Below are positions 1-17,262 of a stretch of DNA of 41,553 nt, one piece after another (the first letter of the stretch is position 1; each line of letters opens with the position of its first letter). A program made the position numbers and the translations under genes. The DNA is taken from the IMG/VR virus record IMGVR_UViG_2534681759_000006, one strand, 5' to 3'. Under the pieces are notes generated by a model, which ran no database searches, was not told where the DNA came from, and was given only the letters and a program-made list of their open reading frames with translations. Origin of the DNA: a virus (lineage: Duplodnaviria; Heunggongvirae; Uroviricota; Caudoviricetes).

Positions 1-1254
1 ATGCTGGAACAAATGGGCATTGCCGCGAAGCAAGCCTCGTATAAATTAGCGCAACTCTCCAGCCGCGAAAAAAATCGCGTGCTGGAAAAAATCGCCGATG
101 AACTGGAAGCACAAAGCGAAATCATCCTCAACGCTAACGCCCAGGATGTTGCTGACGCGCGTGCCAATGGCCTTGGCGAAGCGATGCTTGACCGTCTGGC
201 ACTGACGCCCGCACGGCTGAAAGGCATTGCCGATGATGTGCGCCAGGTGTGTAACCTCGCCGATCCGGTGGGGCAGGTAATCGATGGCAGCGTACTGGAC
301 AGCGGCCTGCGTCTTGAGCGTCGTCGCGTGCCGCTGGGGGTGATTGGCGTGATTTATGAAGCGCGCCCGAACGTGACGGTTGATGTCGCTTCGCTGTGCC
401 TGAAAACCGGTAATGCGGTGATCCTGCGTGGTGGCAAAGAAACCTGTCGCACTAACGCGGCAACGGTGGCGGTGATTCAGGACGCCCTGAAATCCTGTGG
501 CTTACCGGCGGGTGCCGTGCAGGCGATTGATAATCCTGACCGTGCGCTGGTCAGTGAAATGCTGCGTATGGATAAATACATCGACATGCTGATCCCGCGC
601 GGCGGGGCTGGTTTGCATAAACTGTGCCGCGAACAGTCGACAATCCCGGTGATCACAGGTGGTATAGGCGTATGCCATATTTACGTTGATGAAAGCGCAG
701 AGATCGCTGAAGCATTAAAAGTGATCGTCAACGCGAAAACTCAGCGACCGAGCACATGTAATACGGTAGAAACGTTGCTGGTGAATAAAAACATCGCCGA
801 TAGCTTCCTGCCCGCATTAAGCAAACAAATGGCGGAAAGCGGCGTGACATTACACGCAGATGCAGCTGCGCTGGCGCAGTTGCAGACAGGCCCTGCGAAG
901 GTGGTGGCGGTTAAAGCCGAAGAGTATGACGATGAATTTCTGTCATTAGATTTGAACGTTAAAATCGTCAGCGATCTTGACGATGCCATCGCCCATATTC
1001 GTGAACACGGCACACAACACTCCGATGCGATCCTGACCCGCGATATGCGCAACGCCCAGCGTTTTGTTAACGAAGTGGATTCGTCCGCTGTTTACGTTAA
1101 CGCCTCTACGCGTTTTACCGACGGCGGCCAGTTTGGTCTGGGTGCGGAAGTGGCGGTAAGCACACAAAAACTCCACGCGCGTGGCCCAATGGGGCTGGAA
1201 GCACTGACCACTTACAAGTGGATCGGCATTGGTGATTACACCATTCGTGCGTAA
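1..1254 (+). CDS. proA: gamma-glutamyl phosphate reductase (complete, 417 aa)
   Basis: Full-length ORF; translation recognisable as enterobacterial ProA (aldehyde dehydrogenase fold; the length matches E. coli ProA). Window begins at its ATG. Confidence 0.95.
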
Positions 1255-1368
1255 ATAAAACCGGGTGATGCAAAAGTAGCCATTTGATTCACAAGGCCAT
1301 TGACGCATCGCCCGGTTAGTTTTAACCTTGTCCACCGTGATTCACGTTCGTGAACATGTCCTTTCAGG

Positions 1369-1444
1369 GCCGATATAGCTCAGTTGGTAGAGCAGCGCAT
1401 TCGTAATGCGAAGGTCGTAGGTTCGACTCCTATTATCGGCACCA
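1369..1444 (+). tRNA. thrW: tRNA-Thr (anticodon CGT), prophage integration target
   Basis: 76-nt cloverleaf GCCGATATAGCTCAGTTGGTAGAGCAGCGCATTCGTAATGCGAAGGTCGTAGGTTCGACTCCTATTATCGGCACCA with CCA end; anticodon loop TTCGTAAT gives CGT; location directly downstream of proA as for thrW. Confidence 0.9.
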
Positions 1445-1458
1445 TTTAAATCAATAAG

Positions 1459-2622
1459 TTACACATCATTAGTACCTTCCTTATTTTTTGACTGGGACAA
1501 ATTTGGGACCGATGGGTTCAGGATCGAGTCTATTTGCCGTGCGTGTTCGGTAAGGTGATTAGGTGCAAGGTGAGCATATCGACGAACCATTTCGATAGAC
1601 TCCCAGCCTCCCATTTCCTGTAACACTGACAACGGGACTCCGGCTTGAACCAGCCAACTTGCCCAGGTGTGTCTCAAGTCGTGAAATCTGAAATCATCAA
1701 TACCAGCCCGTCTCAGCGCCGCTTTCCAGGCTGTGTTTGCGTCATACCGCATCTTCCTTACTGTTGGCGCTTTCGTTCCGTCTGGTTTGGTACAGCTTTC
1801 CTTGTACACAAATACCCAACGGTGATGATTCCCGATTTGTTTTTTCAGTACGCGACATGCAGTATCATTCAGCGCAACGCCAATTGCGCGGTTTGATTTA
1901 CTCTCTTCCGGGTTTATCCATGCCACCCGGCGCTGCATATCTATTTGTTGCCATTCAAGGTTGATGATGTTCGAGCGTCTTAGGCCTGTTGCCAGTGCAA
2001 ATTCAACAACAGACTTTAATGGCTCCGGACATTCATCAATCAGTCTTTGTGCTTCATGGGGCTCCAGCCAGCGGATCCGTTTATTCTTTGGTTGGGGCAC
2101 TTTAATAATTGGTGCCTTATCCAGCATTTTCCATTCACGCTCTGCGGCTCTTAGTAGGGCCTTTATAAATGAAAGATGCATAGCCTTCGTTGCAACGGAC
2201 GCTGGTTTTGGCGTGTATTCTGGAACAGGTTTCCCTTTTTTTCTGCATGCTTCTGCCCTGAGTTTCCAGTTTTCCTCATGACGCCGGTTCGTCATTTTCT
2301 GCATTGCTGAATAAATTTTTGATTCAGTAATGTCTCTTAGTTGCATTCCTGCGAAATGTTGAAGCCAGAATCCGATCCGGCTTTTGTCATCGTCCAGTGA
2401 TTTTTTATGTGCTTTCTCTTCAAGCCACCTGACACACGCTTCCTCGAACGTTATATCAGGTATTTCACCAAGTTTGCTGACCCGCCATGCTTCAGCCTTT
2501 AGCTTGTCATGGAGTTCTGTCGCCTGCCTTTTGTCCTTTGTTCCAAGAGACTGTTTAAATCTTTTACCGTTCGGCAATGTGAAACTGGCGTACCATATTT
2601 CACCTCTGCGGAAGAGTGACAT
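1459..2622 (-). CDS. int: phage tyrosine integrase (387 aa)
   Basis: N-terminus [14 protein letters not shown]...GKR typical of lambda-family integrases; C-terminal HDLRHTWAS...VRRYAH catalytic motifs (R, H-x-x-R, Y); GAGGA SD upstream; ends 15 nt from the tRNA 3' end. Confidence 0.9.
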
Positions 2623-12675: not shown

Positions 12676-13041
12676 TTGTGGAGAAGGTTGATGCGTGATA
12701 TGTATGAAGTATTGGACCGCTGGGGAGCATGGGCTGCAGCAGATAACAGTGGTGTGGACTGGCAGCCTGTTGCTGCAGGGTTTAAAGGTTTACTACCTCA
12801 TGGAAAGAAAACACGCCAACAATGCGATGATGATGAAGGAATCATGATTGACAGCTGTGTTGCGCGAATGCGGAAATATAAGCCAGAAGAATATGAACTG
12901 ATCATTGCTCACTTTGTTATCGGTATTTCACTCCGTTCAATAGCAAAGAAACGGAAATGCTCTGACGGGTCAATCAGAAAACAACTTCAAGCAGCAATAG
13001 GAGTGATTGAAGGTATTTTGTTGATTATTAAGCCCCTGTAG
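12676..13041 (+). CDS. late-gene antiterminator Q (QuuD-like)
   Basis: Strong resemblance to DLP12 QuuD (LDRWGAWAA...AAGFKGL...CDDD...CSDGSIRKQL..A.GVIEG.L). Confidence 0.8.
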   Translation: MWRRLMRDMYEVLDRWGAWAAADNSGVDWQPVAAGFKGLLPHGKKTRQQCDDDEGIMIDSCVARMRKYKPEEYELIIAHFVIGISLRSIAKKRKCSDGSIRKQLQAAIGVIEGILLIIKPL

Positions 13042-13048
13042 GGCTTAA
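13028..13048. other. bidirectional hairpin (TTAAGCCC ctgta GGGCTTAA) spanning the convergent stop codons of Q and the membrane-protein gene
   Basis: 8-bp perfect stem, 5-nt loop; no strong U-tract on either strand. Confidence 0.5.
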
Positions 13049-13629
13049 TAATTCATATGAATTCTGTTTCCGAGATAATATAATCCAAAGAAAGTTGATA
13101 CTAAGAGTTGCCAAACGAGGAAAGTAAATACAACAGTATAAACCATTAAAACAAAACTGTTTTGATAGACATTGATTAATGGTGAAAATATAGCATTAAG
13201 TATTATTATAACAATGCTTAATGCTGTTAAAAAAGAGAATAGCATGCAAAGAAATAATCGTCTGGTCAGAACCTCCTCTGAATTTACTACTTTTCCATTT
13301 TCTTTTGTTACTTTTATTTCAATAGAGGCATTTCTTTCATTGCTAATCAATGGTAAATCAATCTCAGCTCTATTGAAAGTTGCTATGGCGGCCAGAGCGG
13401 CAATATAAAACCCTGGTAGGTTAGAGATAAATGAAACGATTGATTTAATGAAACCATTGTCATCAAATAAATCTTTGACAGGGATTTTTAATAGAATGAA
13501 AAGTACTGCTGTGATAGAAGTAAGTAGAATTGGTGCTACCCAATCATATGCAGCTTTGCCGCTAATACCTTTAATAAAAAGATATCCAAACGGCTTGCCT
13601 AGATGAGAGAAAACTGAAAGTATTGGCAT
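13045..13629 (-). CDS. AT-rich predicted 4-TM membrane protein (194 aa), second gene of a two-gene antisense moron cassette
   Basis: Four hydrophobic helix-length segments by eye; start 8 nt after the upstream gene's stop; markedly AT-rich. Confidence 0.7.
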   Translation of the reverse strand: MPILSVFSHLGKPFGYLFIKGISGKAAYDWVAPILLTSITAVLFILLKIPVKDLFDDNGFIKSIVSFISNLPGFYIAALAAIATFNRAEIDLPLISNERNASIEIKVTKENGKVVNSEEVLTRRLFLCMLFSFLTALSIVIIILNAIFSPLINVYQNSFVLMVYTVVFTFLVWQLLVSTFFGLYYLGNRIHMNY

Positions 13630-13636
13630 AATAACC

Positions 13637-14659
13637 TCACATCAAATCTATCATTTTCACAACAAACTCTAGCTCAATTTTAACATATGAATCCTTCAGG
13701 CGCGAATTAAAGTTATCGATAATGCTTTTCTTAATAAATGTTTTTTCTAAATTATTAAGATTGATGTTTGAGGTTTTGAAATCAACCTGCCTTGGTTTAT
13801 TTGTTTCAGGATCTTGGAATTTAACCTTTAATTTATCATAACCACCATTCATTTTTTTATTGAAATGAGATGCTACATTTTTAATCCATCCAATAACATT
13901 GTCACCATGATTTGGAAGTAATTTTAATGTACTTTCAGTCGGAATGTAAGGTGAGTTAACATCAGGAGCATTAATTGTTCCGAATTGATCCTTGACTAAT
14001 ATGACATCTGATAATCCTTTTTGGCTTATTTTATTAAAAAGCTCCTTGTCTAACATTCCTGTAAATTCAAATATTGGTTTGTATCGTATTTTTACTTCTT
14101 TTTTTGATGTTGCAGAAATAACGTTAGTTGGATGTTTTGCGGTAAATAAGTCTTCATTGTCTTTCGCCACTTCAAAGAGAATTTTGTCTAAAAAACTATT
14201 TAACCGGGCCGTAGATACACCTGGGGTAGATGTACAAATCATATCATAGGTTCTTTTATTTCCATTTAATGATATGACAACATAGGTAGAAACTTCATAG
14301 CCTTCACCTTGTTCATATTTTGGTTGGATTTCAACGCGTTCATTAGTATTTATATTTTTTACAACGGTAGTACTTCCATTTTTATCAACACTATTAATAA
14401 GAAGGACAATATGCGTGGGTGAGTTATCTGGAAGTAAAGGATAAAGTTGTACATCTTGGAGAGTAACTACAATATTCCCAGAATCATATGAATGAACGAG
14501 TCCCTTTTGTTTAACAATCAATGGGGCAAGCATGTACATTTCCGGAACAGGACATATACACTGGGCTTTTACCTCTTGTGTTGCCTTGGTTCTAAACTTT
14601 GTGTCAATGGTCAGACTATGATGAGTAACGAGTCTTTCGCTAGCATTTAATTTTGCCAT
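13637..14659 (-). CDS. AT-rich soluble protein of unknown function (340 aa), first gene of the two-gene antisense moron cassette
   Basis: Long ORF with Lys/Asn-rich low-GC codon usage; no recognisable catalytic motif by eye. Confidence 0.7.
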   Translation of the reverse strand: MAKLNASERLVTHHSLTIDTKFRTKATQEVKAQCICPVPEMYMLAPLIVKQKGLVHSYDSGNIVVTLQDVQLYPLLPDNSPTHIVLLINSVDKNGSTTVVKNINTNERVEIQPKYEQGEGYEVSTYVVISLNGNKRTYDMICTSTPGVSTARLNSFLDKILFEVAKDNEDLFTAKHPTNVISATSKKEVKIRYKPIFEFTGMLDKELFNKISQKGLSDVILVKDQFGTINAPDVNSPYIPTESTLKLLPNHGDNVIGWIKNVASHFNKKMNGGYDKLKVKFQDPETNKPRQVDFKTSNINLNNLEKTFIKKSIIDNFNSRLKDSYVKIELEFVVKMIDLM

Positions 14660-14770
14660 GAAATCATCCGATTATGATTTTTCGATTTATTTGTTAATCT
14701 TACAAAAACGCTAACGCGTACGCAAAAATTATTGTATCGTGTTAAGAGTGGTTACTTCGCCACACAGCTT

Positions 14771-14800
14771 AAACCCGCCGTCGAGCGGGTTTTGTCGTTT
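14771..14800 (+). terminator. tR'-like rho-independent terminator of the late leader (AAACCCGC cgtcga GCGGGTTT + TGTCGTTT)
   Basis: Perfect 8-bp stem and T-rich tail about 145 nt upstream of the holin start, as for the lambda PR'-tR' late leader. Confidence 0.65.
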
Positions 14801-14944
14801 CTGGGGCTGGGGATTCGTTGGTCCTGGTCTATTCCGCAGTTATCCATTGGTTCGGCTTCTTTGACGTTTCCGCTTCTAATTTGCTGTACATGATGTTCCC
14901 TCAATTTGCACCTGCTGTATCAGCGAGGTGAGAGATAACTACAA

Positions 14945-15271
14945 ATGCCTCATAACCCAAATACCTGGCTGGAGTTGTTCCAGAGCTGGTGGCGTGGAGA
15001 CACACCGCTGGGCGCAGTGATTATGTCGATCGTTATGGCTGGCTTGCGCATTGCCTATTTTGGCGGTGGTGGTGGCTGGAAACGAAAAACGCTCGAGATT
15101 TTGCTCTGTGGTGCTCTGACGCTGACTTTTGCATCCGCTCTTGAGTATGTCGGATGGCCTAAATCTCTTTCTGTTGCCATTGGTGGCGGTGTTGGGCTGA
15201 TTGGTGTCGATGCAATTCGTGGGGCTGCAATGCGAGTAATCGGTAACAAATTTGGTAGCTCGAAGGAGTAA
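14945..15271 (+). CDS. lambda S-type holin (108 aa)
   Basis: Hydrophobic small protein; C-terminus resembles lambda S; first gene of lysis cassette. Confidence 0.8.
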   Translation: MPHNPNTWLELFQSWWRGDTPLGAVIMSIVMAGLRIAYFGGGGGWKRKTLEILLCGALTLTFASALEYVGWPKSLSVAIGGGVGLIGVDAIRGAAMRVIGNKFGSSKE

Positions 15272-16284: not shown

Positions 16285-16392
16285 GGTTATATAGCTAGAT
16301 CGGAATTGGCGATTCATATATCGGAAATAGTTGGTTAAGAATTTTCTGGAATGATTGTATGCTTTTACAACCTATATCGAAGTTCATGTTGG

Positions 16393-17262
16393 ATGAATTT
16401 TATGCAAAACGTACAGCCGCTATCTCTGGTAACTACTTTAGTAATTTTGAGGTCTAATGGAGAGTCAAAGTCGTTAGGTACTGGGTTCTTTTATCAACAT
16501 AGCAATGGTTTCATTTTCCTTGCAACTAACTATCATGTAATAACTGGAATCAGCCCATCCGAAAGGGGTGTAAAGCCATTTATAGGCGATAGTATTGATA
16601 TTCAGCTGAGAGATAAAACCGGAAAACTATTCAAACATACGATGCCTCTGTTTAAAGATGGTTCACCGCTGTGGTTGGAGCACCCCACAGATAAAGAGGC
16701 AGACATTATCTTGATGCCTTTGCCTCAAGAGTTGTTTGTAAACACAGGAGTAAAAGTAGTCTCAAAAACAACGACACTGCCTAATGTCCAGATAAACCCC
16801 TCATCTCCTGTTGTAATGATTGGATATCCTCATGGTTATCATGACACGACTCACTACCTTCCAATATGGAAAACAGGAAGCTTAGCGAGTGAGCCAGATA
16901 TCGATTTCGATGGGAAGAAATTAATAGTTGTCGATATTTCTGCTTTCCCTGGAATGTCAGGCTCTCCGGCATTCTATGTCACGCACAGTGGTTATCTTAC
17001 AAAAGAAGGGAATATGATCATGGATATGGGAATGAAAATTCATTTCCTTGGCGTTTATGCAAGTATGCAAATGCTAAACAGTGATCTTTTCTTAGAACAA
17101 GTCGTTAGTGCTGCAGAATACAAAGTGTCGCATAGTGAATCTTTGCAACTAGGGCATGTCTGGAAAGCTGAGTTACTTGAAGAGATAGCTGCGACATCTA
17201 GTCCGATTGCAACCACACCATCTCAATTTCAAAGTAATAGCAAATTCTTATTTAAGTACTGA
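16393..17262 (+). CDS. trypsin-like (S1/chymotrypsin-fold) serine peptidase, AT-rich moron
   Basis: His region LATNYHVI, Ser region FPGMSGSPAF (GxSGSP); start chosen at internal Met (track ORF begins 16351). Confidence 0.6.
   Translation: MNFMQNVQPLSLVTTLVILRSNGESKSLGTGFFYQHSNGFIFLATNYHVITGISPSERGVKPFIGDSIDIQLRDKTGKLFKHTMPLFKDGSPLWLEHPTDKEADIILMPLPQELFVNTGVKVVSKTTTLPNVQINPSSPVVMIGYPHGYHDTTHYLPIWKTGSLASEPDIDFDGKKLIVVDISAFPGMSGSPAFYVTHSGYLTKEGNMIMDMGMKIHFLGVYASMQMLNSDLFLEQVVSAAEYKVSHSESLQLGHVWKAELLEEIAATSSPIATTPSQFQSNSKFLFKY

Follow-up and report, generated by a model that had tools for sequence, protein, structure and literature searches.

What is the function of a two-gene, AT-rich cassette that runs antisense to its neighbours between the antiterminator gene Q and the late region of a tailed-phage genome? 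The cassette lies in a stretch of 41,553 nucleotides (IMG/VR record IMGVR_UViG_2534681759_000006, Caudoviricetes; the whole stretch is called the window below), and positions 12950-14950 are 100% identical to Shigella phage SfII. A preliminary description, made without database searches, proposed an undescribed abortive-infection or defence module that could not be assigned to any named family. Our analysis agrees on defence and differs on novelty. Both proteins match the PADLOC family PDC-M53 over their full length, and this family includes the published RexABpp system of Pseudomonas putida. The cassette is probably an SfII-borne member of the PDC-M53/RexABpp family, through which the prophage would express a Rex-like anti-phage system with two components.

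The two open reading frames (ORFs) are both on the minus strand. Gene A (SfII_50, 13637..14659) encodes a putative DNA-binding sensor of 340 amino acids from the PDC-M53A/RexApp family, and gene B (SfII_49, 13045..13629) a putative membrane effector of 194 amino acids from the PDC-M53B/RexBpp family; in the SfII record both are annotated as hypothetical protein. The spacer on the same strand measures 7 nt (13630..13636), one less than first counted. Its sequence, ATGTGAGGTTATTATG, places a GAGG Shine-Dalgarno motif over the TGA stop codon of A, which indicates one operon with coupled translation. The ORF scan and the computed composition bear out the AT-rich antisense cassette seen by eye: its guanine-plus-cytosine (GC) content, judged earlier to be roughly one-third, is 32.3% compared with 50.6% for the rest of the window, and sliding-window values are 0.28-0.35 within the cassette and 0.5-0.57 in the flanks. 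The stop codon of Q (PF06530, E=1e-44) at 13041 is 3 nt short of the stop codon of B, and genes for holin, endolysin and spanin are found from 14945 onward. The cassette is antisense to Q and to these lysis genes. Both A and B are real genes, because ORFs of this length are improbable by chance in AT-rich DNA and because full-length homologues with 45-80% identity occur in many Enterobacterales. These data support a moron-like, horizontally acquired two-gene operon.

Profile searches had been suggested as a check on the assignment, and the outcome depended on the library. Pfam and NCBIfam returned nothing for either protein, in line with the earlier remark that the 340 amino acid product has no recognisable motif, and the PHROG matches of both are of unknown function. 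In PADLOC, A matches the PDC-M53A model PDLC04696 with E=2.1e-32 (residues 7-340 on profile positions 4-318 of 320) and four more PDC-M53A models at 1e-12 to 1e-15, and B matches the PDC-M53B model PDLC04699 with E=2.8e-54 (residues 6-193 on positions 2-187 of 188). The two genes are adjacent on the same strand, as PDC-M53 requires. PDC stands for 145 computational 'phage defence candidates' embedded in BREX, DISARM or type I restriction-modification (RM) loci (Payne et al., bioRxiv 10.1101/2024.01.29.577857).

The link from this candidate family to an experiment is provided by RexABpp, the product of PP_5643 and PP_5644 in P. putida prophage P1, where protection from two groups of phages needs both genes (Rosendahl et al., Sci Rep 2026, PMC12894663). 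Deletion of either gene sensitised P. putida to unrelated phages. RexApp binds DNA, and its overexpression causes a RexBpp-dependent growth arrest with permeability to SYTOX and propidium iodide and no depolarisation; suppressors of this toxicity mapped to RexBpp or removed the prophage (PMC12894663). The PP_5643/PP_5644 locus was recovered from IMG/VR with the B profile (locus L134). Its identity is clear from four published primers that match exactly at the gene boundaries, from six of seven published suppressor-site residues at the exact published positions, and from the published context of a CI-like repressor, two small ORFs, A, B and HicAB. A locus from P. putida QH1 was also considered as PP_5644 and rejected as a different allele with a mismatched residue fingerprint.

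The L134 proteins and the SfII pair share their PADLOC models: L134 matches PDC-M53A with 8e-157 and PDC-M53B with 3e-72, and L134 A matches the A3 family profile with E=1e-71. SfII B and PP_5644 are 37% identical over their full length (BLASTP E=1e-32), and three suppressor sites of RexBpp are kept in SfII B (W25 as W30, S145 as S158 and Y181 as Y185). The homology between A and RexApp is profile-mediated, through the shared PDC-M53A hidden Markov models. The shared models, the identity of B and the conserved suppressor sites make the SfII cassette a PDC-M53/RexABpp family member, and on sequence grounds both SfII proteins belong to the PP_5643/PP_5644 family. No paper was found that links PDC-M53 with either RexABpp or lambda Rex: the single paper found to name PDC-M53 gives it only as a list entry, and PADLOC goes unmentioned in the RexABpp paper. 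The equation of PDC-M53 with RexABpp-type systems is thus added by the present analysis; this kind of defence was itself already described.

Protein A is basic (pI 8.9) and soluble, with no hydrophobic segment (maximum 1.07). The best structural matches of its predicted model are lambda RexA and RdgC, and the predicted structure has the two-domain, RdgC-like fold of RexA. At the level of sequence profiles, an A-family search of PDB gave no RexA or RdgC at E<=10, and 61 A-family members gave scattered single-member noise in Pfam with none matching RexA. The basic character and the predicted fold are in keeping with A as a putative dimeric, non-specific DNA-binding protein.

Protein B has the four hydrophobic, helix-length segments that were noticed from the translation, at about residues 31-50, 64-86, 125-148 and 159-184 (KD19 hydropathy up to 2.8). 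The AlphaFold (AF2) model agrees, with four long helices, a beta-hairpin in the central loop and a confidence (pLDDT) of 88.9. The motifs LPGFxIAALAA, RR..L and GLxYLG are invariant. The charge distribution fits a predicted topology that puts both termini in the cytoplasm, as well as the central beta-hairpin loop (residues 102-120), which A could reach there. In the Foldseek list for B, A0A0A7RXT6 in BFVD has the most superposed columns (197) of the small proteins that rank near the top; it is a protein of 165 amino acids from Mycobacterium phage Sbash, with TM-scores of 0.41/0.46 and a non-significant E of 1.5.

A defence module is very probable because the family member RexABpp has been shown to be an anti-phage system. 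On the model of its homologue RexABpp, and by analogy with lambda Rex, A would sense some feature of an infecting phage as a dimeric protein of the DNA-clamp type. Activated A would act on oligomeric B in the inner membrane, and B would then compromise membrane integrity and arrest growth, by which the superinfecting phage would be aborted and the lysogen population protected. The earlier suggestion of a sensor paired with a membrane effector gains support, by analogy, from RexABpp, in which the membrane protein is the growth-arresting effector (PMC12894663). The anatomy of the region suggests that the operon has its own promoter in the intergenic region between A and the holin gene S, from which transcription runs leftward, independently of the late operon and antisense to it, and that the transcript ends at a hairpin shared with Q.

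Several observations weigh against this interpretation. The defence experiments concern the P. putida pair and not the SfII copy, and RexABpp showed no complementation in trans, no two-hybrid interaction between A and B, no depolarisation and no known trigger (PMC12894663). A direct BLASTP comparison of SfII A with PP_5643 is weak (E=0.026, about 20-24% identity). The fold search that had been proposed for both proteins was productive for A, with RexA and RdgC as best matches, but the B model gave no significant match in PDB or BFVD and retrieved neither KwaA nor RexB. A scan for consensus promoters upstream of A found nothing at threshold, and the promoter proposed below scores beneath it. 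SfII A also has a tyrosine in place of the family histidine at residue 126 and might be impaired.

The proposed roles could also be reversed, with soluble A as the toxic or antiviral effector and B sequestering it until infection releases it. A Rex-like system with such a division of labour exists in mycobacteriophage Butters (gp30/gp31, as summarised in PMC12894663), RexBpp activation proceeds without depolarisation, and neither an A-B interaction nor channel activity of B has been demonstrated in the family. In RexABpp, however, the toxicity of overexpressed A needed B, and the suppressors lay in B or had lost the prophage. B is moreover the more conserved partner with invariant intramembrane motifs, as expected of an effector. 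We regard the reversed arrangement as improbable, and A as sensor with B as effector is retained in what follows.

Rex was the first abortive-infection system to be described, and its trigger and effector mechanism are unresolved after 70 years. The comparison with RexAB made in the preliminary description is well founded, in that RexA and RdgC are the best fold matches of A and a family member, RexABpp, has experimental defence evidence. Lambda RexAB is likewise a two-gene prophage operon with a soluble protein of the RexA/RdgC fold upstream of a small protein with four transmembrane helices, and in both systems a sensor is proposed to switch on a membrane effector, whereupon growth stops. 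The proteins differ in size. A has 340 amino acids compared with 279 in RexA, and B has 194 and an extra beta-hairpin loop compared with 144 in RexB. RexBpp acts without membrane depolarisation, unlike the classical model of RexB. The SfII cassette is also placed outside the immunity region, between Q and S, and is not co-transcribed with cI as lambda rexAB is. No lambda-type RexA, RexB or CI was found in the window. The sister phage SfI carries a canonical rexA.

Sequence comparisons keep the families apart. Neither SfII protein matches the RexA or RexB models of Pfam and PADLOC at E<=1, and lambda RexA and RexB match their own PADLOC models (9e-110 and 9e-61) and no PDC-M53 model. With hhalign, A against RexA and B against RexB each gave a probability below 1%, with shallow RexA and RexB profiles of 4-5 close sequences and no secondary-structure scoring; the RexA profile contains five sequences, four of them at least 71% identical to lambda RexA and one 45%, and the relatives present in viral contigs and GenBank phages were limited to identities of 100%, 76%, 72% and 46%. 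These low values are not negative evidence against the published HHpred link, in which PP_5643 matches RexA with a probability of 98.2% and nothing is found for PP_5644 (PMC12894663). The pair works like Rex by our reading and A shares the predicted RexA/RdgC fold, but by sequence the pair falls outside the lambda RexAB families. In the best hhalign alignment of B and RexB, which is non-significant (E=0.1-0.26), B residues 64-85 are set against RexB 42-63. Here the most conserved motifs of the two families, each in the second transmembrane helix, are matched to each other: SNLPGFYIAALAAIATF in B and SSYAGTMIAILIAALTF in RexB. The pairing may be a chance similarity of transmembrane helices or a trace of common ancestry.

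Rex-like pairs have also been described in the literature from actinophages (Sbash gp30/31, CarolAnn gp44/43 and Butters gp30/31). These combine RexA-like soluble proteins of about 340-370 amino acids with membrane partners and give heterotypic, prophage-expressed defence, with a reversed effector logic in Butters. The one hint of a tie to the present family is the non-significant Foldseek match of B to the Sbash protein. Kiwa, which had been named together with RexAB as an architectural parallel, is a defence system that also combines a protein with four transmembrane helices and a soluble protein of about 300 amino acids. This parallel does not extend to the proteins themselves: KwaA and KwaB (DUF4868) gave no match to A or B in PADLOC or Pfam at E<=1, and they do not occur among the fold-search matches listed. 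The gene order in Kiwa is opposite, with the transmembrane protein first.

The family is broad and its two genes are tightly linked. An exhaustive profile search found A-like proteins in 273 clusters at 50% identity, nearly all of 310-350 amino acids. B has at least 682 clusters at 90% identity. Loci were fetched with B from reference genomes (80 loci) and viral contigs (80 loci). An A-family gene is directly upstream of B on the same strand in 74 of the 80 genomic and 78 of the 80 viral loci, in answer to the suggested survey of co-occurrence, and at least three of the six genomic exceptions are contig edges or gene fragments. The gap from A to B is -4 to about +30 nt in 69 of the 74 genomic pairs. 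The loci come from Gamma-, Beta- and Alphaproteobacteria, with single matches in Nitrospira, Desulfovibrionaceae and Victivallales. Across the Proteobacteria, and in prophages too, the order A then B is kept as an operon; the family is also present in the chromosomal contigs scanned.

The two partners diverge at different rates. Of 144 pairs, 131 show stronger conservation in B than in A, and at depth the identity to the SfII protein is about 36-43% for B and about 23-24% for A. The faster divergence of A fits a fast-evolving sensor under arms-race pressure together with a constrained effector B. Among other deposited phage and element genomes, B homologues were found in PQ189345, PQ189338, KR093647 and OP745618 only, all annotated as hypothetical; these are two Vibrio cyclitrophicus 'PE' elements (13-15 kb), Moraxella phage Mcat23 and Salmonella phage F1055.

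Two placements in temperate phages recur. The Enterobacterales copies (L083-L117) always converge tail-to-tail on a Q homologue (53-100% identity, at a distance of 0-78 nt) and have a holin gene upstream; copies whose B is down to about 60% identity keep this position as well. In six Pseudomonas-type loci, one of them L134, the operon comes immediately after a CI-like repressor and in its orientation, as in the cI-rexA-rexB layout of lambda. The P. putida and SfII copies exemplify the difference: the former lies after its repressor in the same orientation, the latter antisense between Q and the late promoter/terminator region.

The close association of the enterobacterial cassette with Q and late control would fit a role primarily in prophage physiology, with A biasing the switch between lysogeny and lysis or DNA transactions, B modulating the membrane or proteolysis, and exclusion being incidental. 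The RdgC fold is a general DNA-binding clamp, and lambda RexA is reported to act on the bistable switch independently of RexB (PMC11077077). This explanation is nevertheless unlikely, slightly more so than the reversal of roles. A host deleted for PP_5643 or PP_5644 became more sensitive to unrelated phages, the family also occurs in the chromosomal contigs scanned and was recruited into PADLOC from cassettes embedded in BREX, DISARM or RM loci, and the window holds no lambda-type CI for A to act with.

On a par with it in probability is that the family function is defence, as in the Rex-like reading, and that the SfII allele has decayed and is inactive. The suspect position is residue 126 of A (14282-14284), which is histidine in 59 of 61 family members and tyrosine in SfII and one close relative (P0003); it also distinguishes SfII A from RexABpp. 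The residue is nearly invariant and is found in a conserved GEGxxxSxH motif, after a low-confidence loop (residues 95-121). On the other hand, all other near-invariant residues are retained, and the replacement of histidine by tyrosine is fairly conservative, aromatic for aromatic, and recurs in a second lineage. The SfII-type 2-kb locus is present in 9 of 5,426 complete Escherichia coli genomes and in about a dozen IMG/VR prophage contigs, and both ORFs are intact throughout with 99.8-100% identity.

An unrelated lysogenic-conversion function, for example in the envelope or in transport like nmpC or bor of the same genome region, is very unlikely: the slot holds non-defence morons elsewhere (nmpC in phage 434B and, further downstream, stx in Stx phages), but Pfam and NCBIfam gave no homology to metabolic, porin or lipopolysaccharide families, and the family includes an experimentally supported defence pair.

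With the Rex-like reading retained, a wider connection can be considered. PDC-M53, lambda RexAB and the actinophage Rex-like pairs might form one ancient and widespread superfamily of RdgC-fold clamp sensors and effectors with four transmembrane helices; its branch in enterobacterial lambdoid phages would have become a permanent occupant of the Q to late-promoter slot, where the arrangement could silence it during induction of its own phage. We consider this possible but doubtful. If there is a single superfamily, Rex-type immunity would be far more common than the 'five described systems', and if the slot acts as supposed, the convergent and antisense arrangement with Q and late transcription would keep the cassette from aborting its own phage.

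The expression signals of the SfII cassette can be outlined as candidates. At the convergent junction, a repeat search found a perfect 12-bp inverted repeat with a 5-nt loop (13024-13035 and 13041-13052) that covers the stop codons of both Q and B. The RNA folds have free energies of -16.2 and -16.8 kcal/mol (z -4.7 and -5.7), and no U-run follows the repeat on either strand. It is a candidate for a shared bidirectional transcript-end hairpin. Upstream of A, a candidate leftward promoter is placed on the minus strand at 14697..14726, with -35 TTGCGT (14725-14720), a 17-nt spacer and -10 TAAGAT (14702-14697), and with a predicted transcription start near 14690. This proposal is based on conservation only. 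The promoter overlaps an invariant block, TTTGCGTACGCGTTAG (14711-14726), which is followed by GTAAnAT and is common to 11 diverged enterobacterial copies in which B is 58-100% identical. The block contains an 8-bp perfect palindrome, GCGTACGC, and may be an operator, the promoter of the cassette, or part of the rightward late-promoter/Q-binding region of this type of Q.

The location between Q and a late terminator, as first described, is reasonable with regard to placement: the stop codon of Q is followed beyond the cassette by a terminator-like hairpin and T-run upstream of S, found by pattern scan on the plus strand (14771-14792, with the feature extending to 14802). The fold of this hairpin is not exceptional (z -1.3). 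The label tR' is tentative. The hairpin is within a 92-nt element (14700-14793) that is 90-98% conserved in Stx2a phages, 434B and hybrid lambdoids, and this element was considered as lambda tR' or as the bor promoter and rejected, being absent from positions 43800-45600 and 45900-47700 of reference lambda. Matches to the element named 'Lambda_...' are not reference lambda and are taken to be hybrid lambdoid phages. In 434B the element is between nmpC and S, with a leftward moron on one side and rightward late genes on the other, and in an Stx2a phage it separates another antisense pair from the late/stx region.

That other pair is found in Stx2a phage WGPS2 (NC_049941, positions 900-2463, minus strand), where the same slot holds gp27 (343 amino acids) and gp26 (179 amino acids). 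The latter has a weak LPG_synthase_TM match and is probably a membrane protein. The pair was tried as PDC-M53 and rejected, with no convincing PADLOC match (PtuA at E=0.018 only). Two-gene cassettes of a soluble and a membrane protein may have a hotspot in this slot between Q and the late promoter.

The analysis adds the equation of PDC-M53 with RexABpp-type systems, the breadth of the family and its two conserved prophage placements; it adds no new kind of biology. Tying PDC-M53 to an experimentally supported Rex-like system means that automatic 'PDC-M53' calls can be read as RexAB-type. A family member native to E. coli and Shigella makes T4 rII, the BASEL phages and lambda genetics usable in the search for the trigger. 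The same module is found at two alternative placements that are conserved in temperate phages, beside cI or beside Q. SfII is the serotype-converting phage of Shigella flexneri 2a, and an exclusion system borne by such a prophage could affect phage typing and phage therapy against this pathogen.

The SfII genome note reports that both genes, together with Q, are unique to SfII relative to SfV and SfI (PMC3772137). A second low-GC patch (0.36-0.42) is found just past Rz/Rz1, where an ORF of 303 amino acids on the plus strand (16351-17262) encodes a trypsin-like protein (PF13365) that matches another PADLOC candidate, PDC-S45 (E=6e-42). In the deposited SfII genome the region of this ORF is interrupted by IS911. 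The insertion is absent from the window, which therefore represents an SfII-type prophage with an intact trypsin-like gene and not the SfII record itself.

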